Source: Lingula anatina
Lineage: Eukaryota > Animalia > Brachiopoda
NCBI GenBank assembly: GCA_051362555.1
Contig: CM120646.1
Coordinates: forward strand, 22,196,001-22,260,000
Direction: 5' to 3'
Length of the DNA: 64,000 nt
Part shown: positions 956 through 62,927 of the stretch, one piece after another
Position numbering within the stretch: the stretch's first letter is position 1
Layout of the letters: every line of letters begins with the position of its first letter
Made by a program: the position numbers and the translations under genes
Notes under the pieces: generated by a model
The model's database searches: none
What the model saw: only the letters and a program-made list of their open reading frames with translations
What the model was told of the DNA's origin: nothing

Positions 956-11651
<10,696 letters not shown>

Positions 11652-15214: not shown

Positions 15215-18200
15215 ATGGCTTTGAAAGAAGTACTACTTCTAGTCGTTGTAGGAATCGCATATATTCCCTTACACATTGTGACAGGTATAGTGTTTACTAA
15301 TTATTATTTTAGGTATTGAAATAACACAACTGCTAACACAGTTTCTCGCAGTTTTCTTCTTTATCGATTTAAATCTGTGTATGGCGGTGGGAATATAACT
15401 TTATTGATGTTTAAAGATTTCCAAATGAACCAAAATAATTACTTGAATTTCCCCAGTCTTACTTAATTACTTCAAGTAAGTTGTTTTCAAATGTCATAAT
15501 AATTAATAGCTAATTGGCCCATGTACAATTATTATATCTGACAACAACTCCTTCAATGTTAGGACGCACAGCAAAATGTTAATGGTGTAAATTAATGCCG
15601 AATATGATGAGAGACGGTCATAGTTATACAGGTACATGTTATCAGTGAATGAAAGGCACATATATTGCACTGTACGAAAGTTTTCTGAAACATCATATTG
15701 ACTTCATTTGCACAGGTGCTAATATAGATGTTGGGCCTTCCACAGCTGTCATTGCTTCAGTAGGAACATCAGTTTCCATGTGGTGTAAAGTGAATACAGT
15801 GACTACTGGATGGTACACGCAGTGGGTGAGGGGGGCGAATAATAATCCTTCCCTACTCACAGAAGGTTGTATATCTGTTGATGCAGCTAAGTACAGTGTT
15901 AACCCATGTGATCAGACCAACCACAACTTTACACTCGTTATATCCAATGTGCAGTTCTCGGATGGTGGGGGATATGCATGTGGCCACAGTGGCATGAGCA
16001 GTGACTGGGTCATTGTGTCAGTGATTGGTAGGCGTCTTGTGTCATTAAAGTTATCAGTCATCCAGAAAAAAATGCCTGAATGGTTTTCCTATAATTAATT
16101 TCGCCTGTATAGCCGGTACTCACAATAGTACGTACAAGTAGCTGACATTCTTAAATATGTACATGGTATCCGCAAAGTGTTTTTCGTTTACAGTCCATAA
16201 ACGTAACATCCTAGCTTTGCATTCTGTTCTTCAATAAGAAATACATCAGCAAGGTACAAAAAGAGGCAGAATGTCAAGAATTATTTATATATTTGTCTTT
16301 CAAATGCCATCATATGTTAGCCCGAAAAGCAATACGTAATTTTATATTTTTAAAGAAATCCTGATATCCTGCCACGTATGTCACATGCTTTCAAATTATT
16401 TTGCACCATACGAAAGGTCGTGATTTCAGTTTTTAACCCTGTCAATGCTAGCTGCTCCACGAGGAACTCGTCTCCTCAATGCCACAGCAGACCTCGAGGT
16501 GAGAGCCCAGCAGGACACCACGTTTATGTGTGAGACCAAGGCGTATCCAGCAGCAACTGTTACCTGGGAGATAGATGGCACAGCAGTGACATCTGGTGTT
16601 ACACACATTAATTCAGCAAGGGACGTCACCACGCAGCTTATTACAACTACAAGTACCCTGAAGTACATGTTTCAAAAGACCCAGGGTTCAAAGACTGTCA
16701 CCTGTAAGGCCAGTAATAGTGCTTCTGGATCGACTCCTGCAGTGGCCTCTGTGAATGTGGATATAATTTGTAAGTAATGCCAATTATGAAGTGACTATAA
16801 ATAGGAGTACGTTGTGCTTCTTTTAAACGGTTGCTATAATTTATATAGTAAAATGAAAGAAATCAAAATGAAAATGTCACTGTACATTATAATTATTTAG
16901 GTAAGAACAGACACGCATTGCATTACAGGTAAAATATTCAGTTTCAAATATATTTATTTAACAAGTTTTATTTATTTAACAAGTTGACAATTTCATTTTC
17001 GACTCACACATAAAAACATAACCCTGTATTTTTCTGTTGAAAAAAAACTTATATCTACATGTGAAAAACAATTATTAAAAGACAATTACGGTTGTATTCA
17101 ATAACTGTTATTTACCAAAACACTTGCATCTTGTATGCAGACCCATCTCCAGTCCAACAGCAAGCGGGCGTGATAGTTGGCATTGTGGTTGCTGTACTCG
17201 TGTTGCTCATATTGGCCGTGATAACTGCAATTGTTACTCGTCGCTTCAGAAAGTCGAAAAGTGGAAGACGTTAGTTTTATTTTCTTTTGTCAATTCTGTA
17301 TAAATAAAATATTTTAGTTAAAGAACAAGCGACAGCTTGAGAATATATTGTACTGCAAGATGTCTCAGTTCAGAAAACATTGAAAAAAGCGTCTTATCAC
17401 ATAACTAGAATGGAAGTTGTGTAAGAATTCATGAAAATATTCATCACGTAAAATACATTTTGACACTTCTAATTTATTACAAACCATTTAGATGTACCTA
17501 ACCGAGAGACAGCAGCAACAGGTGGGATAACTGAGATGAAGAACCTAAACTCGCAACCCCGAGGGGTGAGTGGAATGTGAGCTGTAGTGTTTGAAAACAA
17601 GATTGTGTTGTGTGTCTCCGTTGTAAGACTGCGTTTCTACAGTCAATGCCAGTGTTTAGATGTTGGTATGGCTGTCAGACTGTTGTAGACATTGGTGATT
17701 TCATAACACCGAACGTGTTTTCGTTCTTTAACATATGTTTGTGATTATATTTTCTTCCTTGAGTATCTGCTGCAAATATGCCACAAGCTGTTCATTTTTC
17801 TTAAGGTTAATGGCTATCCATTTCCACCTCTCCTATATTTAAAACTGTTTGACAAAGTGGTAAGGCCAATACTCCTCTATGGCTGTGAAGTTTGGGCCCA
17901 AGAAATATTCAAAGAAAAGAAAATGACCCTGAACAAAATTAACCAAATGCCTTTTGAGCAAGCACATTTGAGAATGTGCAAATGGGCACTGGGTTTGAGT
18001 AAACACGCCAGCAACAATGCCAGTCGCGCAGAGCTCGGTCGTTATCCTTTATATTCTAACATTGTTAAACAGGTACAACGATACTGCCAAAGATTTGGAA
18101 ATCTACCAAATAACAGAATAGTTAAACTCACCCATGATGCAGAACTGACAATAGGGGAAAAAGGTTGGCCAGGAGCGATTAATACTATGTTAACAACTTG

Positions 18201-19167
18201 GAATCTTCACAGTGAAAATGTCCCAGGGGTTCAGCAAATCCAAACACATTGCAATATTGAGGAAAAAATCAATGCTAAAATTGAAAAAATGTTCTGGGAA
18301 GAGTTAACTGATCCTCAAAGCACCAAGTTAAAAACTTATAGTCTGATAAAAAAGTCCTACAAAATTGAAAAGTACCTGCTAACTAATGCCCCTCAGTCAT
18401 TAAAAAGGGAAGTGGCTAAAATTAGAGTCAGTGATCATATTCTGGAAATGGAAAGAGGACGCTACACCAGACCTAAAACACCACGCGAGGAACGATTCTG
18501 TCCCCACTGTCCTGCAATCGAGGACGAAGTGCACTTCCTACTAGAATGTAGACACCATGTAAAAGAGAGGGAGGGCACGTTAAAACAATTCCCTAAATGT
18601 GACATGCATCACCTAGCAAGCAGTGACGAGAAGGTTAAAATCATACTAAGCCCAGAAAATGAGAAAGAATTGTACGCTGTTGGTAAATACATTCATAGGG
18701 CAATTTCCAAAAGAAATGAGCATCTGCCACACTGAAGTAGCCTCATCCTGCTATATATTATATGAACCATAAGTATGGCACATTAGATACATATAGCTAT
18801 TAGCCTATCAAAGAAAATGTGTGTTCCCTCAGTGTATTGAACTATTTACAATTGTAATAAGTATTTTAAACAACGTATACACTGTAATTAATAATCTTAA
18901 ACACTGTATTAGTATTAGTAGTAATCCATAGTGATGTATAACTATTTATTTATTTATATATTTGTAGTATAGAGGGCTAACAAATGTAACTGCCACATTT
19001 AATGCTCGAATAAATTATTATTATTATTATTTCCGTGCTTTTAGCAATCAACCATAATTTTTCAGAGGCCCCCGGCCACGGAAAGCAGTATCTATGAAGT
19101 TCCTGATCATCAAGCAAATCAAACACCAATCTACACAGACCTACAGCCCCATAATGCCTTGCGATGA
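15215..19167 (+). CDS. IgV-IgC2-TM receptor with a two-tyrosine cytoplasmic tail; locus C
   Basis: Exons 15215-15284 (signal MALKEVLLLVVVGIAY), 15716-16027 (V-set, C...W...DGGGYAC plus an extra Cys pair), 16452-16769 (C2-set), 17141-17269 (TM GVIVGIVVAVLVLLILAVITAIV), 17492-17565, 19066-19167 (RPPATESSIYEVPDHQANQTPIYTDLQPHNALR*). All phases are compatible. Confidence 0.86.
17826..19028 (+). mobile_element. 5'-truncated non-LTR retrotransposon (LINE, probably RTE-X-like) in the last intron of locus C
   Basis: Open frame to 18735 (KLFDKVVRPILLYGCEVW, ELGRYPL, RFCPHC..EDEVHFLLEC), typical of the post-RT C-terminus of invertebrate LINE ORF2. The 3' end has AATAAA plus a (TTA)n tail at ~19009-19030. 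Candidate target-site duplication ATTTCC at 17820-17825 and 19029-19034. Confidence 0.85.
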
Positions 19168-21521
19168 GTCCTGACAAGAAATATCGAAAGCGGTAGTGAA
19201 CATTATTCAAGCGTGTGAATATCGTTTTCTTTTTCCCATGACATCCCGACATAATAAATACCAGCAGACTTCCTTTGCTAGATGAAAATCGGTAAAACTT
19301 CGAATATGTAGAATCTGTCCACTTTCATTAAGATTGCAATTTTATTGCCAATAACTATAGGTAGAATTTTTTTTTACAAAAAGTGTATATAATCCTATTG
19401 TAAAATCTTGCATGAAAATTTGACACTATTGTACATAAAATCCTATTGGTACACCATTATAATAAATATAAATATTCATTATATTCAATATTCATTATAA
19501 ATACTGAATGTGCACATGAAATAAGAACATACCCCATCTAATATCTGTGTACATAAAATGCACCAGATGTTCAGTGTATCACCAAATGTGCCAATAGCAT
19601 TTTCGAGGTTGCGTATTCTGAGATCGGGTATCATGTGCGTTTTCATGTTGAGTGATATCAGTGCATGTCATTCTATTTTTTTTAGACTAAACTTGATAGT
19701 TTTTATGAAGTCATTGTCTTGGATTTTTAGTGTAGGTTATATATACTAGTATATATTTGTAGGTTAGAGCTGTACAGGGTAGTAAACACCCTGACACTAA
19801 GAATACAGACAACTCATTGCGACAGCTATCTAGGTGTCATTGTGACAGCTATCTCACCTAACACAATGCTAGCGTGTAGGTCCATTTGGATTGAGGCTGT
19901 GAAGAGAGAATCGTAGCTCGTATTTCGCGCATATGTACAGGTTATATTAATTCACTTTTTTCGTTAGGAGAAAGAAATAATTTTGTATTCTGTTTGTATT
20001 GTATTTTGTTTGTAGAATATACATGGATTTTAGACTCCAAATGAATAAATGTATTATTTTTACTATTATTATTATTATTATCATTATTATTATTAAAAAG
20101 ACAATACAATAGTGAGCGATTAAAACCCAGTATTCAAAGCCAATCATTTTCTCCCCTGTAGACATATGGTGTCTTCGTTTCTTTATTCTGTCTATCTGCA
20201 AGCTAAATGATATGAAGCCCTTTAGTTAAGCCTGCAGTGAGCAGTGTCGTGGGAAAGAGAGGTTTGGTGTTATGTGATAAGACATACGATAACCTTAGCT
20301 CAAGAAATAGTTGCGCTTTATAAGGAACTTACTTGCTTTGAGTCACTTCTATGATACATATGGTTGAGTAAATATGGAAGATAAGAGAAATATTATGAAC
20401 GTGTGTGTTTATATATACCTGTATGTGTGCTTGAGAGAGAGAGAGAGAGACGAGCAAGGGATGAAGGAGGAAGATGAATGATAGTGTCACGTACATGTAT
20501 TACACATCCAGACAGTTGGAGGAAGATATAATATGTCTTATTCTGTATTAAACTTGTAAATACACTTTATTCGTGTCAGTAAAATACAGAAGATTTGAGT
20601 GTAAATGCACAACCCACACAAATGTTAGCGCCTTCAAGTTTTTCATTCTCTCGTTTCAATGACCACAAACTTCCATATGGGACTGTGCTGCAGTATAACT
20701 AAGCAAGGCTTCTCATCTCATTAATGTAGATAACCAAATCATATTTCCCCAATTCTATAACTTTCTATTAAACAATATTTTTACAAGTCATTTTAATTAA
20801 CATTAACACAGCTGCGAAAAAAAGACTATAAAATTCTGTGTGTAAATTTTCTTTAGAGACAATGGGTTTATCTGTATCTGTACTTTAATCAATAATGTCA
20901 TATAAATTGACAAAATGATATATACCGGTAATCTATTAATTGCTTTGATTGAGTATTGGGAATCTGCATTAATATCTATAGATTTCCTATAGAGAATATG
21001 CACACAGGATGAAAATCGTACTGGTATCGACGGTAAAAATGTTTGCAACTTGCCTCTGATAATCAGATAGAAATTCATATACATTTTATCGTCTCAAAAA
21101 CAGAAGGTTGTATAACGTTAAAAAAGTCAAGTGTAACTATAAAGTATATATTCTATTATACAAGCATGGATTATGTATACAAAATTACCATTAAAAAGAT
21201 AGTATACCTTAAGTTCAGCTGTAACATTTTGCGCTCATTAATAATAAGAAGCGTCTGTTTAAATAATATGCATACACAAGCTCAGCCGAGAAATTTAAAA
21301 TAGGTGAAGTAAAACAACATATACTAACATAAAAAAATAGACAATATACTAATATTATCCGCGAAGAAAGCGTTTTAAATGCCACATTTCGCTACACTAA
21401 AAACAAGTAGGTATATACGTAAGGGTCACACAGCTGCAGTGATAAATAATTAACACATTCATGATGCAACAACTAAATGTAAATTGGATAAAAGTAAAAC
21501 TCCTTTTATATTATACGTTTA

Positions 21522-21777
21522 CTAACCGACAAGAAGTTCCAACATTTCTTTTTTTTTTTTTTCATTATCCGCCTTTAACAATTTTTGCTTTTTATCTACA
21601 TTTTCCTTACTTGAAACGGAAACTTTAGTCGGAGACCGGCGGGTCTTACTTGTTAAAGTCAATCGTTCCGTATCTAACGGCGTCATTGGTCCGGATGATG
21701 TCGTCTTGTTTGCCCCTGGTCGAGGTGAGTCTTGAAAACGTGAGGTCAGCTTAGACCGCGCCGTCTGGACCGACTGC
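21522..21777 (-). CDS. Candidate alternative terminal cytoplasmic exon of locus D (Ser/Thr/Lys/Arg-rich tail)
   Basis: Acceptor ctttgtgttacgcag| followed by an open phase-2 exon (QSVQTARSKLTSRFQDSPRP...EMLELLVG*). The phase matches the donor at 23837 and an internal donor overlapping the stop codon at 23400. GC-richer than its flanks. Confidence 0.45.
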
Positions 21778-22199
21778 CTGCGTAACACAAAGTTAAAAAG
21801 GTTGTCATTGTGATTTTAATATTCAAGTTTAAACTTAAAAGGCACGACGAAACAAGAAAGAAATAATGCAGTCAGAAATTAATGCAGATAGATATACCGA
21901 CAACCAGTCACTATGTGTGTATTGAATGATTAATCGACACGTTTAACAGCATGAAGAAAAGACACTTTACGATCGAAATATTCCACATGTTGTTAATGTT
22001 AATGGGCAACAGAGACCTATAGCACAGTTATACATGGTACAGTAATATTTAATAAACACTACATAATGATACCGGTACATTTCATGTGATCAAGAAATGT
22101 GCAGGATGATCTGATGGTGTGCACGAGCAAGTGCGAAGTAAAACCTCCACAGGAAGAAATTGCAACGTTCATTCTGCTTACCATAGGGGTGAACAAAAA

Positions 22200-22437
22200 C
22201 AGTGGCGGATTTAGGGGGGGTGTCAGGGGAGTCCCGACCCCCTTTCGATTTCTGAAAAAAAATCACACCAATAGTCCCCTCTTGAAATTAGAATTTTGAT
22301 AAGTTGAATCAACGAAATAGCACCGCTTGCCCTCTAAAATACCAAAAAACAACTTGGGGCCTTCAGGCCCCGAACCCCACGCCAAGAGTGGTGGGGAGGT
22401 GTAAATGTTGGTTTCAAATAATCCTGAATCCGCCCTG
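22200..22437. mobile_element. MITE (non-autonomous DNA transposon)
   Basis: Imperfect terminal inverted repeats cagtggcggatttagg ... cctgaatccgccctg; caaaaa on both flanks. Confidence 0.65.
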
Positions 22438-23396
22438 CAAAAAGACGTATATTTATATGATGATGTCCACCTTTCTACACGTATATCTTTAGATCTCTCC
22501 TGTCAAATGTGTTTAGCAGCACTTACTTAATTGATAAGATATGTCGGAATCCCTGTCACACTTAAGGAGTGATAAAGATATAAAACCGATTGTTTGTGTT
22601 TGGTTTATCTATATTCACATTTTATTAGATCTGTTTAAATAAACTGATGCTCTAATTCAAGCAGAATGCACTCAACGGTTGTTGACAAGTTTTGGAAATA
22701 GCCTAATTTTGAGTTGTAAAATACACCAAGGCGTAACCATGATATACAGCGAAAAAATATACATGTATAAAATATATGGTAAGTCTTCATAGATTAAAAT
22801 AAGTAAAGGAACTGTGTTGGAGAAAACTGTGAAACTCAGCAGCCTTTACTTTTTTATGGATACACTCACATGGAAAATGTTTCAAGTAATGTTCAAGTGG
22901 GCAAGTTCATGCAAAATGCAGTACCTATTGTGCTGTACGATGCACTGGCCAGTATCGGTGAATTAAAGGCCTTACACATGAACACGTCACTTAATGTTTA
23001 CCCTCTTTAATATACTCTACAAATCAATTTGATTTTAAAAGGCCATGTCAAACAGCTGACGACGGTACAGTATTAGACACCTTATCGCACAGAATACGAC
23101 CTTTGGGTCAGCTAAGGTCGTGTAAATGTAACATCTGTACACTCTTCAGGTGTGAACTTTTGATACACGCACCATGGAAACAACCGGCTATGTCTTCATG
23201 TAGCTGACACGATAATATATTTCCAGTCTTGGATGCATCCGCGTAATACTAGTCCATGTGTTGAATGCAAAGGCAATTAACAGAGGCAATTCTGTGGAAA
23301 AAAAATGAAAAAAATAACACACCCCACTAGTTGATCATATATGAACCATTGCTGTCAAAGTAGACATGACGTTTTTTTTTTTACCTTTACTGTACT

Positions 23397-24979
23397 TTAC
23401 TCCGTGACGTCAGAATCGGGTCCTCTGCTGGAGTGGTTTTCGTTGGAGGTTTCTAGGGCTGGGTTGGACACTCCATTTGACCCTACATGCCTGGTATCAG
23501 CAACCAGGGAACTACAACGTAGAAAATAATGTCTCGTCCATTGTTTTCACGTAGTAGAATTAAAAACATAAGCATTTCTCATATACAGACTTTTCAATAA
23601 GCTGCAGTATTATAAGGATCAAAGTAATGTAACCCTCAAAACTTTATTTCTATTTCTATTAGTTTTCTTTTCTGATTTCTTGGTTAAAAAAGCTGTTGCA
23701 AACTTGAAAAGGAGTATACTGTGACTTTTTTCTTTTTTGATAAAGACATTTATGCAAGGATAACTACTGTATTTAGTCACTTTATATTAAGTTAATTGAC
23801 AAAAAATTAATTATTACTTAATATTCAGACACTTACTTTCGAAGTCCCCTTAACTCCATCCTTGCATCTGAAAATTCATTAGAACATAAATGGAACATAT
23901 ATGGTAAATGTGTTTTTTTTTTTGGACTAGTTACAGCTGACCATATTTATCTTAATTTCCTAGCCTGTACGAGATAATTTCATCGTTAGTGTTTTGTATT
24001 TGTTTGTGGGAATAAAACGCTAATTTTTTTCTTTTATCGACAGCGATTATTAAACTTGTTGTTTACCTCCAAACGCTAGATGGTTTTCAAGGGCACCTTT
24101 ATCTTGAATAGCCATCGGAGGAAAACAGTAAGCCTGTTAATAAATTGTTTAATGTATATTGTTTGTTAATGCTAGTTCCCCCCCCCCAAAAAAAAAAACA
24201 CATACCGCTTGCTTTCTGTCTTCTTTTTAGATAAATCCCCCCTGCAATGATGGCAATCATTACCAACGCAGCTCCGACACTTAATGCGATGATGATAGTG
24301 GTCGTTTGATCGGGGTGCTCTGTTGGCTGTACAGCTGGAATTTTATAAACGTGTTTTATTTTAAAGTGTGCATTAATCTTAAAAGACATCAACGGTCATT
24401 ATCTATGTAAACAGAGACAAAGCGTCTGATCCAATATCCTTGACTTAACGCAGTTTCGCCTTCTCAAACCCCTTGTAAAACCTGTAGCAGTCAGTTATAT
24501 ATGCAAGAAATAAATAAGCAAAATCGAGTGAAAGCACATAAATGTATTTTGTGTGTATCTCTTTCTATTGAGATCAGTTTCCACTGAATACCTTTCAAGA
24601 TTTATATTTGGAAAGCATCACATTTAAACCTTTGATGGTCCTGTATATTATGCTGACATGAAATGATATACATGTATGTATACTCACTACTTTGTGTTCT
24701 CTTCTGAGATTCCACCACAACATCTTCACCTTGGTATATAAGTAAGCGAAACTCGTAGTCAAATGAGGGGTTAATCGAGAACTTCGTCGACAGTGACGTT
24801 TTATCAGAGACTTCGTGGACTCTGCATTCTTGTGGGTTTGCTCCAACTACACAGTATTCTATAGCTAGTGAAGAATATTCCCCTGTAGGAAGTTTCCATG
24901 TCAGTGTCACTGATGAACCAGAAATCTCCACTGTCAATGATGTCTCTTCAAATACAGGTTTTTCTTAAACAACAAAATA

Positions 24980-25033
<54 letters not shown>

Positions 25034-28000
25034 CACGTGTTAATGGACCATTACACATGTGAATATCATATAATACAACTCATTACTGTTTAATGCCTTC
25101 CAAGGGATTCCCGTCAAAGCTCTCACGTTGCCTGCCTGTTTGTCTCTCACATTAATTGGGTCGCGATTTATACTAACGTAGCCATTACTATCAGTTTATT
25201 GTAACATGCATTTGGTTTGGAATTTTGAAAACTACTTCAGGGATATGCAAAGCCCTCATTACCATTATCGCTAGAGCTTAAATGCATTTTAATAATCGAA
25301 GCATTTTCCATACTATAAAGAGACAAATTATAGAAAAGAATACCTTTCGTTGCAATAGAAATCACATCAGAATAGACACTATAACTTCCACCATTGTACG
25401 AATTTTTGGCTTTCACTCGTATATTGTAGGCAGTAGCAGGTGTCAGATTGTCAATTTTGTGGGATACATTCTTTACTTCGCCTGTATCATTGATGTCAGA
25501 GGCAGAAGTTTCCCATATCTCCCCAGCTTCATCTTTGTATTCTACCACGAACACTTGGGTGAGGCCACCACTGAAAGCGGAAACCCATTGAACTTGGGTC
25601 GAGATTGCCGTGGTGCGACCAGGAATCTCGTGAAGGCCTGTTGGAGCCAATGGTGGACCTAAATAATAATAATAATAATAATAATAGCCTTCATACATTG
25701 CCTATTTTACATTTTGCTTGTTCGAATATGTGAAAATTTGCCTTGGGATACATTGCATTATTATCTAAATCGTAGTTTGCAAAGGAATCAATCCAAACTC
25801 AAATGTTATTGAAATTTAAGTATATTATTTTATTTTACCACACATATGTGAATATCTTTCAAATTTGAAAAGTTATCAATGAATGCGCTACATGTTTTGC
25901 TTTATTTTAAATGGGGTAATACATTTCCATTAGCTCTAGTGCTTTAGGATAAGAACCCAAACCTATCTTACCTTGGGCGCTTACGTTAAAACAAACTTTC
26001 AGTTTTTCACCGATGCCATTGGCGACCTCACAGCAGTATTCCCCGTAGTCACTCTCCTTGACATTCCCAATAGTCAGATTTGAAACCAACCCGTCACTGG
26101 ACGCAAGCTCTGACACATTTCTTGAAGCGTTGTCTGGTTTGACTTTCGTCCACACAAAGTCGTCATGTTTGGGTTCGGGGTTTGCCACAACATACAAGGA
26201 CAATGTGACGTTACCGTTGACGGGTGCCACAACTTGTTGGCTAGCTTTCCGGTAGGGGTGAAGTTTGGGGGAATCTGCCCCAAAAAGACAATATATACGA
26301 TGTTATTATGGCCGCCTGTGCATTACTTTAGAATGCCAAAATGATTTATATTCTATACTTTAAGGGATGTACTGTATGTACATCCGTTAAACTAAAGACC
26401 TACGGTTTTTAGATTATGCATTTACTTCTCTTGTTTAAAAAAAAACACGATTCTAACTTCGAAATTAACATGCGTATTCACTTACGTAAAATGGGCAACA
26501 GCTTGCTTCCTTGCCGAACTAAAGCACTGTTATTAACCACACACGTATAAGTTCCAGATTTCATGTAGTTGATATTTTCCAGATGCAGAGTTCTGCCCCT
26601 TGTCCCGTTAAGCAACTGTGTGTCGCTCATGAAGTACGACTGAAAAGTCCAATCTTTGAAATCGTACAATGAAGGCACTCCCTCCGCCTGGCATTCCAGA
26701 GTAACATTGTCCCCCTCCATCAAATTGGTTTCTAGTATCGCAATTTGGACGTCTAAATCTGGTTTAAAAGAACATAGAAATAAGGGTATAATTGTGTTCA
26801 CACACACAAACCCACACACAATCACACACATGCAGAGAGAGCGAGAGAGAGAGAATTACAGACGCATGTTATAGATGAACATTCTAGATTCATTCATTTC
26901 TAAATGCGTTTTCATTACGTGGTTCATAGTACAATGATGAATATATTAGTATATAATGAATACGTCTTTAACATAGTGTAAAATATTTGTGAAATTCAAA
27001 TGAAACTTACAGTTAACTGTTATTGGCAAGTACTGAACAGTGATCAGCTGCCCGTATCGACTAGATTTGGAAGCGCCAGTACATGAGTAGTTTCCGGTAT
27101 CTGTTCTATTCAAGTTCAGGATTGTTTGGTTACTTCCAATCATGCTCCATTCGCCGTGCCCCAACCTGTATGTGATGTTAGAAGGGTTCCCGTAGCCTGA
27201 GCACATAAGACGGACACTATCATGCTCGTTGACCATATTTCCCGGCAAGGCGGTTAATTTTAGTTGTGGATGATCTGAAAAGGGGAATAGAAGTTACCTT
27301 CCAATTACACAGAGAGGTAAATATTTGCATATTTAATGAGGATGTATTGTTCTGAAGCAAATCAACATTAATTAGCAGCATTACAGACATTGATCACCAT
27401 ATGAGTATCAAACATATCCTGTCAAACAACGACGGTACCTACTAGAAATATAGGCAAAGTGTATTTATAAAGACGTACAACACATGCCAGTACCATGTTT
27501 GTAGATTTGTCCCAAGCCAAACTTATTCACAAGTGCAACTTACATTCCACGTCTAACTGTATGGCCTTGAACACCCTTCCTTTCACCGCCGTGTAACTGT
27601 TCCTCGCCTCGCAAACACATACCAATTTGTCATCGTCCACTCCAACAATAGGGACCACGGACATGAGAGACGGACCTTCTGTTCCATTCTGTGTACTGTT
27701 CTCCTTGCACATCCATGACAGCGTCGCCGGTGGATATCCACCAGTAGCGGTGCAGTTCAGTGTGGCGTTGACTGTGGCGTTCTCTCCGGTTGCAAGCCAG
27801 GGCAGCGGTGGGCTGGCCGTTATGTCCAGGTTTGGTGGATCTTTAACACATACGAAATGTGTGCTTTAATGGTTAATAGTGCTCAATGAATATGTATTCT
27901 CGGCAAAAATAGATCTTTTATGACGTTATAATAACATATTCTGGTTGTGTAAACGTTTTGGTAGCGTTATTGTAACGTTCTTTGTTTGCTAGGTTATATA

Positions 28001-29875
28001 TCCATGAATCTATCAATGTTAATAAGACGCATTTATAACAAAGATTTATTACTGGGGTATATTACGTCCCTATTTACTCAAGTTGTTACTGCTGTTGGAT
28101 GACAAACAAACTCACGGGCTATGAGCAGGGTGACATTGGAACTCCTCTCTTGTGGCGACGCGTATTTCTGAAATGCCGTACATGTACACACGCTGCCGTG
28201 GTGACTGGAACTGGCTACAAACTGTAGCTGAACCACAGCCTCTGTGGAGGACGACAAGTCAGTCTGACTTCCGTTGGGACATCCAGACCACGTGAGTTGA
28301 GATAGCGGGTTACCACCAGGTACCCTGCATGTGAGATTTACAATGTCTCCGTCATACATGGTGTCTGCCACTTGGTTGTACCTTCTGAGTATGGGGACAC
28401 TGCTCCATTCAGGTGGAGGGACTGTAACATTGACACAATACCATTATACAATAGGTGATAGATACTGCACAAATCATCGATATAGTGTGTAATGTAAGTA
28501 CGATCGAAATAATTCGTAACTTGGCCAATTTTTTAATAAACTTACATTTAATACATATTTAACATTTTATGTCTGTGAGAGTGTTTTAAAGCATACTTAA
28601 AGAAATCGTTAATTCATTGTCTCGACTCTACTTACAAAGTATGTTCAAGTAAAACTCAGATGAGTTGCGAGTCTCTCCAGTCACCGTGTTGTTTGCCTGA
28701 CATATGATTCGGAACCCATTGTCCAGCTCGGTAACGTTAAAAATTAAATGACTGATGGTAGTGAAAAGATAATTATCAACTGCTGTTACGTTTGATATGC
28801 TGTCTCCGCCGATGTCAATATATTCGTTTCTTTTATGCTTGAACCAGTTTATAGTTGCCGCGGGTCTGGATCTCTTGGCAGTACATGTTAACTTTAATTG
28901 TTCTTCCACTGTAAAATTCCGTGAGCAGCCATGGCTGCAGTTTTCTATGCTAAGGCTTTCGATGTCAACTAAAATGAAAAGGCTAAAAGATTTACATTGC
29001 ATAGAGAAGAACTGTATACAATAAAACACCTTGACTGTGGTATGTATTTCCAACTTTCGAATTAATACGTCTGTTCCTTTTCCAACTGTTCATCTGTATT
29101 TACTATGCATGTACAAATTATTTGTATATTATCTGGAATACACAAACTATGCCAAACTCTGTGGAGCTTTCCTTTACTATAGTAATAAACTTCATCATTA
29201 CCTTCAACATCCAGAAGTACTTTTTGTGATGCATTTTGGTAAAATTGATTTTGGTTTTGTATTTCTTGAACATAAGATATCCGACAACCATACAGCCCGA
29301 CATCTTCTACAGAGGCGTTTACAATAGTAAGCTCACGCCCACCGTGACCAATCGTCGCTCGGCCTTTGATACTGACGTCGTAGTCATCTTCCGATCCCTC
29401 TGCATGTCGTGCAATATAGTTTTTCTCGGTTAATTCATCCTTTTGGAACAAGACATATTCCATCATATTGTGTATTTTTTCAGGGTATTTACATTCCATA
29501 CTAAAAGTCATACTTTCTTTCACTCGGTTAGGTGTCAGCGTGAAGTCAACCTTTACATCCGCTGAAAATGTTAACAATTTTAGTGTTTGTGTCTGCAGCG
29601 TGGTTCTTTAAAGAACTGTTTACTTTTAAGGAATTTTGTTCAATTTAGATGATGGTATTCTAAACACACCGTTATCACAACGATACATACAAGTTACAGC
29701 AATAACTTAGACACATAAACAGTAAGATCTTCAACGAGATCGAGCCTTTGAGTTATCTATGGATTTTTCACAATTAACATTCAGCATTCGGAGTCACAGC
29801 ATGACCAATTCAACCTTTACCTGCTAGTAAATAAACCAAGAGAAATACCACCAAGAGCAATAAGATTCTATCCAT
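23397..29875 (-). CDS. Kinase-less IgSF receptor: signal - IgV-like - 6 Ig - FN3 - FN3-like - TM - short tail (paralogue of the locus A ectodomain); locus D
   Basis: Exons 29875-29821 (MDRILLLLVVFLLVYLLA), 29561-29202 (V-like, DVGLYGC), 28968-28636, 28421-28116, 27840-27544, 27274-27011, 26758-26486, 26274-25972, 25658-25344 (FN3), 24963-24688, 24334-24206 (TM), 23867-23837, 23511-23397 (ends GPDSDVTE*). All ectodomain introns are phase 1. Confidence 0.9.
24980..25032. repeat. (AAT)n microsatellite
   Basis: Direct reading. Confidence 0.9.
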
Positions 29876-30107
29876 TTTGGTATTATCTCACAGCTGTAAG
29901 TAGTAACGCACGAATATCATCGTTATGTTTTGTACTGTAGTATAAATTGGCCCTTTCAACAATTGTAGATATATAACTCTCCTTTCCTATCTCCTTATTA
30001 TGGAGTACATTCTACAAATACACATTAAGTAAAATGGGAATGAATGGATTGTCGTATTTAACATTTTATGAAAATTATGTGTATCCACGTGTGTAATTAA
30101 TATAAGT
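29876..30107. promoter_or_regulatory. Compact putative bidirectional promoter between loci D and E
   Basis: Only 232 bp separate the two divergent ATGs (29875 on minus, 30108 on plus). TATA-like TATAAA at 29941 and an ATATATA run near 29969. Confidence 0.55.
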
Positions 30108-32084
30108 ATGGCTGCTGGGAGAAACACCCATTTCTTGTTCGCGTTTATCCTGACAGTAGCAGGTATGTGGCAATTTTAACTTTAACACATATTAGATATA
30201 TGGAATATGGATGAACGTATTATTTGACAAACATGAGGTTACAGTCAGATTAAAATTTGTTATTTTTATTATTTATTTTTATTTATTTATTTTCAGACTG
30301 TGGTGCAGTTATAGTTGACTTATCGATAACAGGACTCCACGGGACAGATTATAACACATGGGCTCCACTTAACCAAGACGTAGTCTTTCGATGTGCATTC
30401 ACCACGCCATATAATGTTACGCTTGAGCTTTACAAAGGGACTCCTATTTTCAACAACCTAGTTTACAAATATCATTTTCGATTTAGAGAACCCCTGATAC
30501 CCAACAGTCCCTTCCATGGACGTTCTCAGTCTAACATAACTTTGATACACAGTGGTAAAATGTGGATAACCCTGCAGAATGTAACAAAAGAAGACACTGG
30601 GAATTATTCCTGCTACGTGAGAGATACACACAATAACGAAAATTTTTCACAAGTAGTTTTGACAGTCGCAGGTAGGTGAAAACGTTATAGTAGGCCACAA
30701 ATGCCAACTAGTACTAGTACATGAAAACACTCGCGTGTACGGGTATATGAATGTGTATTTGTGCGTGTGTTTGTGTACGTACTTGTGTGTGTGTGTTTAT
30801 GACTGTGTTTGCGTGTGTATGCATTATGCATGTCATGAATCGTTGAAATTGTCAGTCTGTTGATGCGTACGGATTCTTTCATTTTTTGATTCAATAGTTT
30901 ACATAACACCTGCTTGTCTGTGAACAGGTATTCGTAAAAGTACACATTCATACTTCTATAACAATATACACATTGTACACGTATGTCGAGGTATCTTAAT
31001 TGGACTTGGTTTAAACCAAATAAACATAAAGGACACTAAGAATTGTTTAATAGATAAACCAATAAACGATACCAATAAGTTACAAATTGCCAACTAAAAT
31101 CATATATTGATTACAGCCCCACTTGACGTTAATGGAATTTCAATCACTGAGATCGACGACATGGACCTGGACACCAGAACCATGAGGGCCGTTCTAGGCC
31201 TTGCCTACCCTGTGCCTGATGTCCACTGGTACTGTGGAAAGAAACAGTTTGTCAGTAATGACAGCTCGGTTTGTGATGAGACGTGCGCGACAACGAGCGT
31301 TGTCATCATACCTGCACCCAATAGAACGACCACGTGTAGGATGCGGGTTCAGCACGTTACTCTCTCGGCGGTATTTGAGAAGGATTTTACTCTGCGTGTT
31401 GTAGGTAAGTAGGTTGTATTTTTTCATGAATTTTATTCAGTAATAAGAATTGGCATCCTCCACAGGTAGACCAGAGCGTCAATACACAGTCAGTATCTTG
31501 GCCAAAAATGACCAGGCGTACAAAAGCTGGCAGTTGAAATACCATTAGTGAGAAAGAGACAAATGAAATCGACATCGGCAAAAATATCAACTATTTAATT
31601 TTACATAATTTTATCATAGTACTAAAGCAGATCATCCCTACTTATTACAGTTCCAACCACCATCCAACCTGACGAAACAACTGTAACTGTGTCTAGAAGT
31701 ACTGAAGTAGATACAAGGGAAACGTTGAACACCACGCCGAGTTCATCTGTGGAGCCGTTGCAATCTTCAGAACAACCATCGCAATCTGTAACACACCCGA
31801 CTACGGCACAACTACCACATTCGTCGAGTCCAGGTATGAATCAATTTACTAGTTACATCTATCTGCTTAATTTTTCTCAGAAGATGACTAATATTTGTAC
31901 ATTTGGGTGATTAGAATACTATAATGAGATGATTTGAGAAGGAAAAAGATGGAGATACCTCTATATTAAACCGCTCTTTTATTCGCTTACATGTATAATC
32001 AAGCCATCTATCTTTCGGCCTGGATCTTTACATTTTGCGATTCTCTGCCAGGCAATGCAAATAAAATTTAAATTATGATGTAAG

Positions 32085-32118
<34 letters not shown>

Positions 32119-32924
32119 TGGAATACACGTTTTTAATGAAGAAATATTCCATTGAACCACAATGTCGGGTACAGTGTCAGGAAGGTTAGCCGATTTAGTT
32201 GGTATAAATTTTGAACGGAAATAGCCAAAGTAAGCATGTATTCATAGTAAAAATATGTATACGGCAATTTCTCCCGCTGTTTTTCAGCCAGTATATTGGA
32301 TACGTTAAAGGACCCAGTAGTGATCGTTGGAATATCATTCGGTGCCATTATCATTATAATAATCATAATCGCAGTAAGCTGCAGATTCTGCGGCCGGAAG
32401 AAAACAGCAGCAGTCGCAGAAATAGGTAGCGTCACTGAACCATTTTTCTAACGATTTATTGCATGGCAAAATAACATTGCTTCTTACATTAGGGCGGTCA
32501 CACAATGCATGGATAAACACGTACAACATTAGCTCTGAAACAAATTTAATGACTCTATACATGCACTAGTTGCCCCTGTGTATAATTGGTATCAATGGGA
32601 ACACATAAACGCACCCGGCTCGTAATGTCTAGTTATATGTTAGCTGTGCTTGCTACAGCAATGGTTGAGAACGTAAGCATGAATGGAGTACTTGATTAAA
32701 TAAAATTCAAATTTTCGAAAGGCCGACTAGTCTTTATTCTAAAGTCAAACTGACCATACATATTCCACTTAGGACTTGCTTTGCAACATGATATTTTTAA
32801 CGCTGCTGTTTTGACAGATTTCAATGCGTGTTGTAATGTATATTAACATTCTGTATTGGACATTATGCTTTTATGAAATGTATTTTTCAGGTCTTGACGT
32901 CTTGCACTCTCTCCGGGTACGTTT

Positions 32925-32961
<37 letters not shown>

Positions 32962-34679
32962 AAAGTATATTCTTCAAATAACTATTTTGTATCTTTTAAA
33001 AGAACCATCTACTTGATATATTAATTAATTTAAGGTGTTTTGAAAACGTTACTGTCTTGGTTGGTGTCTCTTCTAAAGTATACATTTAGGTACCATGTCA
33101 TGTATGCCATACAATTTTTAAAAGAATTATCCATGATAACGACATTCAAAGAACAGCATGTCATTTCATTTCTCTTGAATAATGGAATTCTATCCGAAAA
33201 TGTATTTAAATGGATTTCTATATAAACGGTTAAATAGTAATATAACTTTTCGATATGATTTTCCTTAGAAAGGGGACGAAGTAGCAGTTAAGAATATGGG
33301 GAACGATGCTGAAATATCTATGGATTTGGCCGTATTTGAAAGGGCAGTAAAACCGTCTTACTGTGAAGTAAAATTACCGAGGAAAGGAGACCGGTATGAT
33401 TGCTATTTTCCTATAACCTCCCGTGTTCGTTTTCATACAGTAATTATCTGCATTGTGTGAGTGGTTCGCTTATTTTCCTTTATTTACATTGAATAAAGAT
33501 GTTAAACGGACAAACAGGTTTTAGATAATCCTGAATCCCACAAAACCATATTGCATCATTGCCAAGTGCTCCTTATATAAAACGTATTGTGCAATGTCAA
33601 GGCAATATGTGTCAAACAAAACCCGTTATCGAACACAATGAGAACAATCTTGCTTCATCAAGGTGATTGTTTAACATGTTCATTTGCCACGGTGGGAGTT
33701 TTTTTAAACTTTTTAATATATTTCATTATCAGTTTATTCAAAGTTAGCGTCAACAAACTGGTGGCTTTGAATTCAACCTCACCAAGTGAACTGAAGATTG
33801 GTATGGTAAGTATTTAAAAAAAGGCATTTGCATTTGTAGTAACTGAAAGTACCAATACTTTTAAAGCATTATATGAGCCTGAAGTTGATACTATTTGTGG
33901 GGTTCTAAGTATTTTTTTAAAAGTTTATACCAAATTATTTATTACAATGATCGACAAACTGAAAAGTAATCATGGGTAGAGATGTCCAGAAACCCATATT
34001 TGTGAATTATAAACCCATTATAAAAATTACCATGCAGCGCTGATATTAAGATTTGGCACATTTTCCAATACATTGCAAAGAATGTCACATTTAAAATCTT
34101 ACTACTTCAGAGTGTTGTAGCCCTTCATCCACTGGTGTGGCGTTTTTTCGAAGGAAATATTCAGGGAAAGGTACGATATTAATGCGATATAATTGCTTGC
34201 CTAGGAATTCTTAAAGTTCCCGTGCAGGTACGGTTGATAGTTTTAAATGCGTCTCTTTGTAGAAATAATCGCTTTTTGTGTCTCTGACGTACATGAAGAC
34301 AAATGCCTGGCTGTGCATTAGTCCCTACGTGATGTGTATACACGTTAAAACAACGGCATGTAAAAACAGCTTTTTCATTATCATGAAACTGTTAACAACA
34401 CTGACATTTAATTATATTTTTTATACTTTAAAGGTTATAGTGATGAATTAAGTAACATGCTCTTGTGTCTGTGTTTTTCAGTATAGATCGCATCTTTCTT
34501 AGTTGGACCTAATTAGTGCTATACTAATGAAGTAGGGAAAGAAAAAAATACTTATTTTAAATTAAGTGCATGCTTTTTAGGTCGGAGAGGACAAGTACAG
34601 CATTCGGTTTAAGGGAGAAGAAGTTGAAGACCACATGGTGGACTTGAAATACATTCTGGATGTGGGATGTATCAACTGA
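30108..34679 (+). CDS. IgV-IgC-mucin stalk-TM receptor with a cytoplasmic SGF29-like tandem Tudor domain; locus E
   Basis: Exons 30108-30162 (signal), 30297-30671 (V, DTGNYSC), 31117-31404 (B7/CD80-type C domain, AYPVPDVHW), 31651-31833 (S/T/P stalk), 32288-32425 (TM), 32891-32916, 33269-33393, 33733-33805, 34111-34170, 34581-34679. Intron phases after the TM exon run 1-0-2-0-0 with no stop. An unspliced read-through would end at 32451 (VTEPFF*). Confidence 0.8.
32891..34679 (+). other. Five micro-exons encoding a tandem Tudor-like (SGF29 C-terminal type) domain
   Basis: Spliced translation: GLDVLHSLRKGDEVAVKNMGNDAEISMDLAVFERAVKPSYCEVKLPRKGDRLFKVSVNKLVALNSTSPSELKIGMSVVALHPLVWRFFEGNIQGKVGEDKYSIRFKGEEVEDHMVDLKYILDVGCIN*. 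Collinear motif similarity to SGF29 as recalled (GDKVAA, ILAEV, YEV, VIPL, VLALYP, FY, DDYSVLF, V..RYVV). Confidence 0.68.
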
Positions 34680-37600
34680 CGAGTTAATGCATGTTGTCGA
34701 TAACAGTATTCTTCATTGGATTTGGGAGTCCAATTTGAGTTTTTGCAAACGCCTCTATATCCACAAACAGTTATTATATCATTAATACAACTTTGTGTGT
34801 CAAAGGTCTGGTTCGTATTTAAAATGCATGATGCAGTAACATCGCTGGACTATCAGAAAAAAGTCACCGCTGTTGCAAATGGCACCCCAAACATGTACAG
34901 AACCACCTCCTCCAACTATTGTTTCCTGGATATTTTCCCAGGGAGCCTACGCACTCTCATTTCTTGTTGGAAAACGTTTATCCACCATATTTATTTTGAA
35001 AATCTCCAACAATAATGAATATAACCGTAATAAAGAGTAAGCTTTGTTGTAAAGTCTATTAAAAACCTTAAATTGATATTTTGTAGATACAAAACACGTC
35101 TGAATGACCTATTTTTGAATGAGACGTTCCAATCGCAAGTAGCCCAATAGAAAAGAAAAATGAGAAAGTAAATCACAAATAAAACAATAGGAAAGCGCAA
35201 TCAAAAACAGCATAATTTGCTTTAAGCTATTTATTCAATATTTTGGAAATAATCAGCATAAATGGTATTTTCCTTCCCCATCCACAATCATACCGAACCC
35301 TCTACAGCATTTGTAGGCCTATAGATCATAAAACTAACGTAATGTTAAATCAACTGCCAAAGCATCAAGGAATCCATTGGATATGATATTCCTGTCTTAC
35401 ATCTCAACATAAAAAAATATTTTGGTTTATTTTAATGAAATTTGACCTCAGGTGACCTTTGTCCACCTGCTTGATTTCAGCTGATGTCACATAATTTTCT
35501 TTACTGTTTTCTTTTAGGACAATATTTTAAAATGGGGTAAAGCCATCACTTTATCTTATTTTATTGACATACTGTAAATAGTTTCCTCCCCCTATCCCTA
35601 ATCTTTTTAGATGTTTTCATTACCGGTTTAAAACATTTACACACTGAAAGCTACCGATTTGAAGATGCTACCAAACAGAAGCTGATTCCTGAATAAATGG
35701 ACATATGATACCAATGGAATTTGGTCGCCCTATTTGTACTGATGACCCAGGTTTAAGTAGTCTATTACGGTTGCGGCTATGAACGGGCACACCTACATTC
35801 GTATGTCTTAAATTTCATTGACACACTATATTCTGTATTGGGATATTTTGAAACAACTTATGATGAAAAATAGTTTGTAAGATACTGTGTATTTTCGTTC
35901 ATCAATTGCGGGTAATGACTGCGTTTAAACTATACGCATTTCTTTATTGTTTATTTTTAAAATTAGCCATTGGTACATGTAGTTAAATTGTATATAAACC
36001 CTTCTTAAATGTATTGCTTTCCTCTAGAGAACATAGTCAGATAATTCAACGAACACAGAAAATAGAAATAATTGAATGGACAAATACACAGGTTAAAGAA
36101 TTCACGCCCGTTCTACAAATTGAATTCCGCTTATTAATTGGTAAAAGAAAACCGCCTGTGCTCCACATTTGTCTACAGTGGCAGTGCTGTTTACATGGGG
36201 GGCCTATATGTGTATGTTGGTGTGCAGCAACGGCACCAGTGACTCTTCAGATCATCGATTCAAACACTGATTCTATATTATAAAATGATAGATACAGTTA
36301 AGTGAAATGTTCCTTATTAAGATGGGTCAATAATAACAATCATTATTTCATGTAGTTAAAATGGCATAGATATTTGTATACCAGTAAAGTGGATTAGTTT
36401 CGATTTGCGCAAGATTTTTATTACTATTATACTTTTAATTACAATAACAAATCGGCTGACAAAAGCCGCTCTTTACAGCAACGATACAATAAAAAATAAG
36501 AAGGGCACAGCAAGCCACGCGTCACACCTTTGTATATGTACACAGTATCACAGCTTCTTTGACAAGCTACCTTTGCATTGTATGTGTCACCGTCTATGGG
36601 AGAAGATCTGAAGCTAAACGAACCAGCACGAACTGACAAAGCGAACATTTTGTGGCGTTGTCTTTTTCTTAAAAACCATTTACAAATAGCAGGGCTAAGC
36701 GTGGCATCAATTCTATGATGAATTACTGCTATGGAATATATGTAATGAAGTTTTGAAGGAGATAAATAGCAACTCATGCAGCAAACATTTCAAAGACATT
36801 CAATGGAAATTATAGGCCTAATGTATACGAACATGGTCAACATATACCAGAATGAAGCATACCGAGTCTCATTTCCTATTATTTTACTAAACTTGCTTAA
36901 GTCTAATCTCAGCTCATCTTTAACTAAGCCGAGACAGCCAAGTATTGCATTTAATTTTATGCAGGACCCCATGTGGCTCACCTTCAATAATTCCCATATT
37001 CTGCACTTGGTGAATCTCTTGAAGTAAATCTATGGATTTTAACACACAGCTTGAAGTAAAGGAGAGGCTTAAGAAAAGACCCATGCTGCACCCCCTTTGT
37101 TTTCTAAATCACAAAAGCATATATTTGTGTTAAGAATGATAAGTAAGGTCGCAATAATTCATTTGCCGATGTCCAGATAAACCATCCATGAGCGCAATCA
37201 GAATTTGGCATTTGGAATAGGGTTTCTGAAGTTCTTAAATAATTTCAAAGGCGAATCCGGGGTAAAGTTCTAGTGGTAGGCCCTCTATACTACACAGAAA
37301 TACGTATTTTCTCTTTTTTTTAGGAAGACAGCAAGGATCTAAATTAATTGCATCCAGATACACCTTTAAAATAGTTGCACGTTTTACCAAGACATCCAAG
37401 TTCATATCACAAAAAATCCGATTAAATACAGTAAAAGATGTAGTTGTAACTATATATGAATAAAGAACAAAAAACTTCATGGAATGTCACATGAAAAACA
37501 GAGAAAATCCAAGCGCTTAAATGTAACTCTTGTGCGTATATATAATACATAAAGGATTGAGCGTTTGCTATGTATACACTTCAATATGTACATATACTGC

Positions 37601-38697: not shown

Positions 38698-53992
<15,295 letters not shown>

Positions 53993-56786: not shown

Positions 56787-56836
<50 letters not shown>

Positions 56837-59800: not shown

Positions 59801-59952
59801 TATATGTATCCTTTTTTTTTTTTTTTTTTTTTTGGGGGGGGGAGTATAACTGGGTCACAAGGACATTTCTGGGAATATTAGTTTGTCTTATTTTGCTTCT
59901 TACATCTGTTGTTGTTGTTCTTCTTGTGCTTTCTTCTTTTTGTTGTTGATCC

Positions 59953-59989
<37 letters not shown>

Positions 59990-62891: not shown

Positions 62892-62927
<36 letters not shown>

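Follow-up and report, generated by a model that had tools for sequence, protein, structure and literature searches.

A predicted two-Ig-domain membrane receptor with a cytoplasmic tail that probably derives from SGF29's tandem Tudor domain

The window (the whole 64,000-nt stretch of DNA that was analysed) contains ten GT-AG exons at 30108-34679 on the forward strand, from which a single stop-free open reading frame of 473 amino acids was built. We consider it somewhat better than an even chance that its product is a single-pass receptor with two immunoglobulin (Ig) domains whose tail is a tandem Tudor domain derived from SGF29 through duplication at the DNA level and is predicted to serve as a membrane-tethered docking module, not as a histone reader. 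The architecture is likely real and undescribed, with a predicted function.

The open reading frame encodes, in order, a predicted signal peptide, a V-set domain, a probable degenerate C-type Ig domain, a Ser/Thr/Pro stalk, a transmembrane (TM) helix and a 127-aa tail. GT-AG borders were present at 9/9 introns and the exons end in phases 1,1,1,1,1,0,2,0,0. An earlier note on this DNA had proposed five tail exons of 26, 125, 73, 60 and 99 nt; assembly of the reading frame recovered them with the acceptors it claimed, in compatible phases and free of stops. The G+C content of each tail exon (0.38-0.58) was higher than that of every intron of the gene (0.22-0.36). The features of the gene model are as follows.

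30108..30162, + strand: exon 1, carrying the ATG and a predicted signal peptide (aa 1-18); donor score 9.1
30297..30671, + strand: exon 2, Ig V-set domain (aa 19-143) with Cys51 and Cys124
31117..31404, + strand: exon 3, probable degenerate C-type (C2-set-like) Ig domain (aa 144-239) without the B-strand Cys
31651..31833, + strand: exon 4, mucin-like stalk (aa 240-300), Ser/Thr/Pro 54%
32288..32425, + strand: exon 5, transmembrane helix (aa ~312-330) with a juxtamembrane Cys pair and a basic stop-transfer; weak phase-1 donor
32891..32916, + strand: exon 6, 26-nt adapter from phase 1 to phase 0, first residues of Tudor 1
33269..33393, + strand: exon 7, first strands of Tudor 1 with Leu391 and Arg393 (equivalent to D194 and D196); phase 2 end at an SGF29 intron position
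33733..33805, + strand: exon 8, end of Tudor 1, linker and start of Tudor 2; 73 nt vs. 94 nt in animal-type SGF29
34111..34170, + strand: exon 9, first strands of Tudor 2 with His427, Trp431 and Phe434; 60 nt vs. 69 nt
34581..34679, + strand: exon 10, last part of Tudor 2 with Phe451, Gly453 and Glu454, then the stop codon; 99 nt vs. 117 nt
32644..32672, + strand: candidate alternative adapter exon, 29 nt, phase 1 to 0, with an in-frame ATG at 32661
35029..35034, + strand: candidate poly(A) signal, the first AATAAA 3' of the stop codon; more at 35058 and 35178

Sequence comparison makes it likely that the tail is a much-altered tandem Tudor domain copied from SGF29. The tail scored 23.0 bits on our main profile, which was home-built from 33 diverse SGF29 Tudor domains, compared with a maximum of 5.6 bits among 2,000 shuffles (1,676 scored) and of 7.6 bits among 10,000 stop-free decoy splice chains drawn from the window (of which 7,386 scored). 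Alignment of the tail with SGF29 by hhalign covered 116 columns (probability 77%, E 2e-5 for the pair), and residues were identical in 10 of 26 strongly conserved SGF29 columns. The collinear SGF29 blocks and the His/Phe/Phe/Gly at the cage positions that had been listed earlier were both reproduced by HMMER, MAFFT and hhalign. The tail is 12-26% identical to SGF29s, whereas animal-type SGF29s are 53-81% identical to each other. On a profile of 23 long, mostly animal SGF29 Tudor domains the tail reached 5.4 bits, less than the best decoys (12.9), and its pairwise score with the animal-type SGF29 gene L076 was 2.5, again less than the best decoys (6.0); exons 7 and 8 on their own scored 0.8 bits. 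True SGF29s cross-matched DUF4537 at 17-23 bits (three of the five tested), so 23 bits alone denotes a tandem Tudor and not its family. The Pfam models, that of SGF29 among them, were run on single tail exons and gave no Tudor match (0/4), and lone tail exons likewise retrieved no Tudor domain from PDB sequences (0/2) or the ESM Atlas. When the tail exons were aligned to one SGF29 scaffold at a time, ordered placement was obtained with 0/33, and an internal self-alignment of Tudor 1 with Tudor 2 was not recovered in the tail. A stretch at 20280-20339 that resembles the Tudor-2 motif (tblastn E 1.0) was taken as chance.

Shared introns provide the strongest evidence for the predicted link to SGF29, and they are new beyond the earlier note. 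All three introns inside the Tudor region (3/3) lie at the same aligned codons and in the same phases (2, 0, and 0) as those of L076, whose exon lengths are 182, 94, 69 and 117 nt as against 125, 73, 60 and 99 nt in the tail; exon 9 has SGF29 intron positions at both ends, in phase 0. Among 10,000 intron-match decoys, 331 had one match and none had two or more. The first shared boundary was also present in L063 and L077, and the second and third in the more distant L052. The agreement in position and phase points to a DNA-level duplication of the last exons of SGF29, and because introns were kept, the copy would not have been retroposed. The N-terminal region of SGF29 had no match below E 1 in the window (tblastn with full-length L020). 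The linker of the tail is 7 aa shorter than that of animal-type SGF29. Short linkers are present in non-animal SGF29s too (e.g., L097 and L067).

The residues that SGF29 uses to bind histones are largely changed in the tail. The aromatic cage of SGF29 is formed by Y238, Y245, F264, and D266 (PMC4589357), and the mutants D194A/D196A are reported to have defective H3K4me binding (PMC10630320, PMC8873214); Y245F was reported to lower the affinity only about 4-fold (PMC4589357). The cage positions correspond to His427, Phe434, Phe451 and Gly453. The Asp found at position 194 in 34/34 SGF29s is Leu391, and position 196, which is acidic in 30/34, is Arg393. The cage alignment given earlier thus held, but the label of a methyl-lysine reader with a partly kept cage was weakened by the Leu, Arg and His at D194, D196 and Y238; similarly, the Gly at D266 was correctly observed but carries less weight than it had been given, being natural in 9/34 SGF29s. 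Reading of H3K4me3 chromatin by the tail would be unlikely because D194, D196, and Y238 are replaced. The tail did not contain an ITIM pattern, its only Tyr residues (386, 447 and 465) being inside the Tudor region, and the tail exons had no Pfam match to B30.2/SPRY.

The remainder of the model has the features of a type-I Ig-superfamily protein, namely a signal peptide, a V-set domain, a single TM segment and phase-1 domain exons. The V-set domain of exon 2 scored 34.5 bits in Pfam (cut-off 26 bits), and its weak matches included BTNL8, MOG and BTN3A1 (E 2.7e-4 or worse), mixed with CEACAM, JAM and VEGFR. Exon 3 had no Pfam Ig match; on a profile of seven Ig exons of the window it scored 14.1 bits (best of 2,000 shuffles, 9.0). 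Its AF2 model made with window paralogues was all-beta (pLDDT 65), and the top Foldseek rows for it were Ig constant domains and Necl-4 at E about 0.01, none at E<=0.001; a single-sequence fold was uninformative (pLDDT 45). The TM helix of exon 5 had a Kyte-Doolittle value of 3.28 over 19 aa. The host locus is a local cluster of Ig receptors.

The frame and phases of the exons make it likely that the Tudor domain is fused to the Ig receptor, with the splice from the TM exon to 32891 inferred from sequence. The earlier claim of an Ig receptor with an SGF29-like tandem Tudor is supported in its Tudor part, by profile and by 3/3 introns, and its fusion part is regarded as likely. A splice matrix built from 20 acceptors and 22 donors belonging to other genes of the window ranked acceptors 32891, 34111 and 33733 second, third and fourth among 105 AG sites and donors 33805, 32916 and 34170 first, fifth and sixth among 145 GT sites. 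Weak by this matrix were the TM donor 32425 (52/145) and acceptors 33269 (57/105) and 34581 (23/105). A homology-blind search for splice chains chose exons 6 and 8 in four of five settings, exon 9 in three and exons 7 and 10 in none. RNA sampled from four of nine runs with the same species label (about 6, 6, 6 and 25% of each, without a positive control) gave no exon reads on 29900-35500; the 29 reads obtained from this sample were all on a repeat near 34870-34960, and the result speaks neither for nor against the splices.

We propose that duplication placed a copy of the last exons of an SGF29 gene that had introns after the TM exon of one receptor in the local Ig cluster. There, a short adapter exon would bridge the phase-1 donor of the TM exon and the phase-0 acceptor of the Tudor region. 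The histone-binding surface would then have drifted while selection kept the fold, as suggested by the lack of stops and by exons that differ in length by a net 21, 9 and 18 nt, with every change in a loop. Binding of a ligand or cell contact by the V domain would cluster the receptor, and the Tudor barrels are predicted to recruit a cytoplasmic partner. Tudor domains are known in proteins of the nucleus, of RNA granules and of the inner nuclear membrane. Should the junction be confirmed, the gene would document the transfer of a chromatin-reader module onto a cell-surface Ig receptor, down to intron positions, and would offer a direct test of the repurposing of a methyl-lysine reader. It would also represent a class of genes missed by annotation and protein databases because micro-exons split the domain so that no single exon reveals it.

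The weak TM donor is one argument for the Tudor exons being a separate small gene, or having an internal promoter, with the receptor ending in a short read-through tail (a stop occurs 24 nt into the intron after the TM donor). In-frame ATGs 5' of exons 6 and 7 at 32661, where a strong donor follows, and at 32824, 32836 and 32878 agree with this possibility, as does an ATTAAA at 32695; the absence of any AATAAA between the TM exon and exon 7 speaks for the fusion. We regard a separate gene as rather unlikely, however, given that the exon 6 acceptor is among the best of the region with the phase exactly as needed, that a 3' end and a promoter must fit in only 465 nt, that intron sizes are uniform (305-465 nt in the tail, within or 11 nt above the 134-454 nt of the other introns), and that the TM exons of three other receptors in the window likewise end in phase-1 donors. 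It is improbable that the fused tail belongs to some other tandem Tudor family (DUF4537/C11orf16-VWA3 type or similar) and is not an SGF29 derivative: animal SGF29 has a longer linker and a longer last loop than the tail, which resembles DUF4537 in this, SGF29 and DUF4537 cross-match, and the mostly animal SGF29 profile fails on the tail, but all three introns coincide with those of SGF29 and the short linkers of L097 and L067 belong to SGF29s. A decaying, unexpressed fragment or a chance splice chain would fit with the failure to find a relative in the databases searched; the open frame, the intact splice sites and length changes that keep the frame at about 80% divergence, together with the decoy tests on profile score and intron matches, make this barely credible.

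For the function of a fused tail, there is a small chance that a captured reader domain of a SAGA subunit works as an intracellular sensor, either with a rebuilt pocket that binds a methylated protein, a metabolite or a pathogen effector and signals via the Ig ectodomain, or with a tail that is released and acts in the nucleus. If this reading is true, the gene would encode the first Ig-TM-Tudor signalling receptor. A remodelled cation pocket (His427, Trp431, Phe434, Phe451, and Glu454/455) might sense a methylated protein or a small trimethyl-ammonium metabolite in inside-out signalling, as B30.2 does in butyrophilins. Four aromatics and two Glu near the cage positions, the natural Gly at D266, the small cost of Y245F, the V-C-TM layout and the weak matches to BTNL8, MOG and BTN3A are in accord with such a pocket; with His at Y238, Leu/Arg in the D194/D196 pocket and butyrophilin matches both weak and mixed with other families, we think it doubtful. 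Two roles raised in the earlier note fared worse. A mucin stalk, together with a TM helix that has many beta-branched residues and Gly, suits shedding and gamma-secretase, and the 14-kDa tail is small enough to diffuse into the nucleus; these features would allow Notch-like intramembrane proteolysis to free the Tudor domain to read H3K4me3 chromatin, but the H3K4me determinants are replaced and both the SAGA-binding N-terminal region and an effector domain are missing, making this role very unlikely. The chance is slighter still that the host domain, captured into a fast-evolving Ig cluster, is an integrated decoy for pathogen proteins aimed at SGF29/SAGA, since about 20% identity and a changed binding surface make a poor mimic and the chain has no signalling domain.

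The earlier note knew of no described type-I Ig receptor with a Tudor tail, and none was found in the databases and literature searched. Close relatives were not found by word searches with exon 7 and the V exon, by exact look-up or in metagenome contigs. HMMER with the V exon against 1.84 billion representatives gave 268 matches, of which the best 150 were generic multi-V or other Ig proteins; 0/150 matched either the SGF29 profile, with a best score of 1.3 bits, or the tail, and a Pfam scan of 44 of these had no Tudor among the top five families listed. Conversely, 0/30 long SGF29-containing proteins had an Ig domain listed. The literature search found no relevant paper on an Ig-TM-Tudor architecture beyond a survey of 3,323 Tudor proteins from 111 holozoans, the main text of which does not contain the words "immunoglobulin," "receptor," or "signal peptide" (PMC12147562).

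The sole transmembrane Tudor protein in that survey's table of known Tudor proteins is the lamin B receptor, LBR (PMC12147562). LBR has a single, N-terminal Tudor domain and is located in the inner nuclear membrane, without the signal peptide or Ig domains of the present model. Plant NLRs with integrated decoys also carry a nuclear host domain on a receptor, whereas the present protein is an animal single-pass Ig receptor without NB-ARC or another signalling domain, and its domain is far from the parent in sequence. Butyrophilins have an IgV-IgC-TM structure with a B30.2 tail, and their cytoplasmic domain was gained by exon shuffling. The model resembles butyrophilins, MOG and B7 in its V and putative C-type Ig domains, TM helix and predicted globular cytoplasmic domain; it differs in having no B30.2, a mucin stalk and a C domain without the B-strand Cys, and the similarity is too weak for orthology. 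DUF4537 (PF15057) belongs to the same superfamily as the tail, cross-matches SGF29 and has a short linker. Unlike SGF29/CCDC101 (Pfam PF07039; PDB 3ME9, 3LX7), a soluble nuclear subunit of SAGA, the tail lacks the N-terminal region and follows a signal peptide, Ig domains and a TM helix; its linker and loops are shorter and it has an extra phase-0 intron at the start of the domain. With SGF29 it shares the collinear tandem Tudor, three introns and their phases, and a stop codon in the last Tudor exon.

The ten exons of the receptor gene, a predicted Ig-TM-Tudor gene on the + strand of the window (30108-34679), were joined by their coordinates into a single frame of 473 amino acids:

30108-30162, +, exon 1
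30297-30671, +, exon 2, V-set domain (Pfam V-set, 34.5 bits, over the cut-off)
31117-31404, +, exon 3, candidate degenerate C-type Ig domain (window Ig profile, predicted fold)
31651-31833, +, exon 4, 54% Ser/Thr/Pro
32288-32425, +, exon 5, strong TM helix
32891-32916, +, exon 6
33269-33393, +, exon 7
33733-33805, +, exon 8
34111-34170, +, exon 9
34581-34679, +, exon 10

All nine introns are GT-AG (phases 1, 1, 1, 1, 1, 0, 2, 0 and 0), and the G+C content of every exon (0.38-0.58) exceeds that of every intron (0.22-0.36). The five exons of the tail, the 127-amino-acid segment after the TM exon, join stop-free as the earlier note had proposed. Compared with solved structures, the V domain gave weak matches to CEACAM, VEGFR, JAM, BTNL8, MOG and BTN3A. 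Exon 3 had no Pfam match; it scored 14.1 bits on a profile of seven other Ig exons from the window, against at most 9.0 in 2,000 shuffles, its fold predicted with those paralogues as alignment was all-beta (pLDDT 65), and the top Foldseek rows for that model were Ig constant domains (E ~0.01). These results hint, weakly and in part circularly, at a degenerate C-type domain.

The tail is almost certainly a real, coding tandem Tudor. A degenerate motif scan over metagenome contigs yielded 113 loci, nearly all SGF29 by translation; all three tested matched Pfam SGF29_Tudor (103-127 bits), and one (L020) matched human SGF29 in the PDB with 226 bits. A profile of 33 of these loci, picked by eye as intron-free and covering both Tudors, gave the tail 23.0 bits (E 3.4e-9 as a single comparison), against 5.6 for the best of 2,000 shuffles and 7.6 for the best of 10,000 decoys (chains of five exons without stops, joined at GT-AG sites elsewhere in the window); motif selection biased the invariant Tudor-2 columns of this profile, and the decoys were scored under the same bias. 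Most of the score came from Tudor 2 (exons 9 and 10, 12.8 bits; exons 7 and 8, 0.8), and hhalign aligned tail and SGF29 over 116 columns (probability 77%, E 2e-5). On a profile of 23 long, mostly animal SGF29 Tudors the tail scored 5.4 bits, below the best decoys (12.9), and its pairwise score with L076, an intron-bearing animal-type SGF29 gene, fell inside the decoy range. Its identity to 34 SGF29s was 12-26%, and three of five true SGF29s tested also matched DUF4537 (17-23 bits). The tandem Tudor part of the "SGF29-like tandem Tudor" claimed earlier therefore stands, and sequence similarity alone cannot pick the family.

Gene structure points to SGF29. Several of the 113 loci, among them L063, L076, L077 and L052, are animal-type SGF29 genes with introns. 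The Tudor exons of L076 have lengths of 182, 94, 69 and 117 nt, the first of them taken from the earliest complete codon included, and the intron phases are 2, 0 and 0; exons 7-10 of the tail measure 125, 73, 60 and 99 nt, and all three intron positions and phases match. The last three exon lengths differ by 21, 9 and 18 nt, whole codons lying in the linker and loops. In a MAFFT family alignment, the first two of these introns occupied the same columns in tail and SGF29 within gap-free blocks and the third the same short loop; in the pairwise alignment with L076 all three coincided on at least one side. Among 10,000 decoys aligned alike, 9,669 had no intron match, 331 had one and none had two, and a simple calculation put a three-intron coincidence by chance at ~1e-6. 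Boundary 1 also occurs in L063 and L077, which are close relatives of L076 and count as one lineage, boundaries 2 and 3 in the more distant L052, and an exon beginning two codons ahead of the Tudor-2 motif recurs in 11 of the 113 loci, all 11 of animal type. The tail was thus very probably derived from SGF29, by a comparison that covered SGF29 gene structures, and there is a small chance of an origin in the DUF4537 family. The kept introns would indicate duplication at the DNA level rather than a retrocopy. Nothing similar to the SGF29 N-terminal region was found anywhere in the window, and none of L063, L076 and L077 has the phase-0 intron that the tail carries where Tudor 1 starts; the copied segment therefore probably began within an SGF29 exon and would then have taken on a new acceptor before Tudor 1. 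The acceptor of exon 7 is weak, fitting a recruited site.

Fusion of this tail to the Ig receptor is likely, as predicted from the genomic sequence. The acceptor of exon 6 ranks second of 105 and has the phase required by the TM donor, the window's three further receptors have TM exons that likewise finish in phase-1 donors, and the tail introns are similar in size to the remaining introns of the gene. An in-frame stop ahead of exon 7 means that this exon requires one upstream. Against fusion, intron 5 contains in-frame ATGs and a second possible adapter exon (32644-32672), and a splice-chain search blind to homology never picked exons 7 or 10. Also against it, the donor of the TM exon ranks only 52 of 145, a weak site, and read-through of that exon yields a short tail. 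A short-tailed isoform may exist alongside the fused form. On the side of fusion, the first AATAAA past the TM exon lies at 33492, within intron 7, and the first past the stop codon at 35029. Four of nine runs with the same species label, read partly and without a positive control, gave no reads on any exon, which speaks neither for nor against fusion.

The architecture appears new relative to the sources searched. Neither the receptor protein nor close relatives were found in the sequence databases or metagenome contigs searched, with partial queries that could miss diverged Ig-Tudor relatives. A HMMER search of 1.84 billion representatives with the V exon gave 268 matches, of which the best 150 were generic Ig proteins, none with a Tudor match; no Ig domain is annotated in any of 30 long SGF29 proteins. 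Like the earlier note, which knew of no Ig receptor with a Tudor tail, the literature searched (subscription journals mostly uncovered) held no description under Ig or receptor plus Tudor, domain or exon shuffling, or DUF4537. LBR is the only transmembrane Tudor protein in one survey's table of such proteins, and the survey's supplement may hold unnamed orthogroups of relevance here (PMC12147562).

The receptor gene is part of an Ig-receptor cluster, and the surrounding animal genome is AT-rich. Other features of the window are:

1696-11652, +, receptor tyrosine kinase (7 Ig, 2 FN3, TM and kinase exons)
14214-14519, +, solitary V-like frame, degenerate (E 0.067 on Pfam V-set), possibly a pseudo-exon
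15215-17269, +, sibling signal-V-C2-TM receptor (open frame, phase-1 TM donor)
17707-18732, +, 342-aa frame directly after the sibling's first tail exon
21525-29875, -, head-to-head Ig receptor (7 Ig exons, 2 FN3 exons, TM, kinase-less tail)
~38700-53000, -, kinesin-3-type gene (matches to Kinesin_assoc and, weakly, FHA)
55642-57728 and 61581-64000, -, duplicated gene with a glycine-rich domain (83-91% DNA identity between copies)
58987-60475, +, enoyl-CoA hydratase/isomerase-type gene, flanked by both glycine-rich copies

The head-to-head neighbor begins with an ATG at 29875, 232 nt from that of the receptor gene, and both open with a 55-nt signal exon; a common promoter is possible, and this neighbor is a candidate partner. 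Its ectodomain layout is that of the kinase receptor, and 33 query pieces for a kinase-like exon in its tail gave no match outside the kinase gene. No Tudor match was found downstream of the sibling receptor. The 342-aa frame, without a Pfam match, resembles a LINE reverse-transcriptase ORF in its C-terminal part, and the glycine-rich domain, also without one, we take to resemble that of ALK/LTK. The kinesin-3-type gene ends convergently ~4 kb downstream of the receptor gene. The putative 3' UTR of the receptor gene contains a short repeat (34866-34960) that in runs X4 and X7 attracts reads of 90-95% identity showing a joint between opposite strands; the repeat is probably a dispersed inverted-repeat element.

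In human SGF29, Y238, Y245, F264 and D266 form the cage that binds H3K4me2/3, and binding further requires an H3A1 pocket; D266A/N lowers affinity ~8-fold and Y245F ~4-fold (PMC4589357), and D194A and D196A serve as mutants defective in H3K4me3 binding (PMC10630320, PMC8873214). When the tail was placed on this numbering via the PDB alignment, the cage positions were His427, Phe434, Phe451 and Gly453, reproducing the residues read earlier, and D194 and D196 were Leu391 and Arg393. Among 34 SGF29s the D194 column, which lies outside the selecting motif, is always Asp, the D196 column is acidic in 30, and the D266 column is Gly in nine. H3K4me3 reading is therefore probably lost, which weakens the methyl-lysine reader claimed earlier and counts against Notch-like release of a chromatin reader. 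An integrated decoy is also disfavored, since 20% identity to SGF29 would make a poor mimic. That the frame is still open and the splice sites intact at such divergence suggests long selection on the fold. The tail, in which no ITIM pattern was found, is most likely a protein-docking module at the membrane; its cluster of His427, Trp431, Phe434 and Phe451 with Glu454/455 makes ligand sensing a possible role.

In function the tail would stand outside the SGF29 family, with other binding residues, no N-terminal region and a different predicted localization, and the receptor is no butyrophilin, since it has no B30.2 domain. Most likely it works like other Ig receptors that gained a cytoplasmic interaction domain by shuffling.
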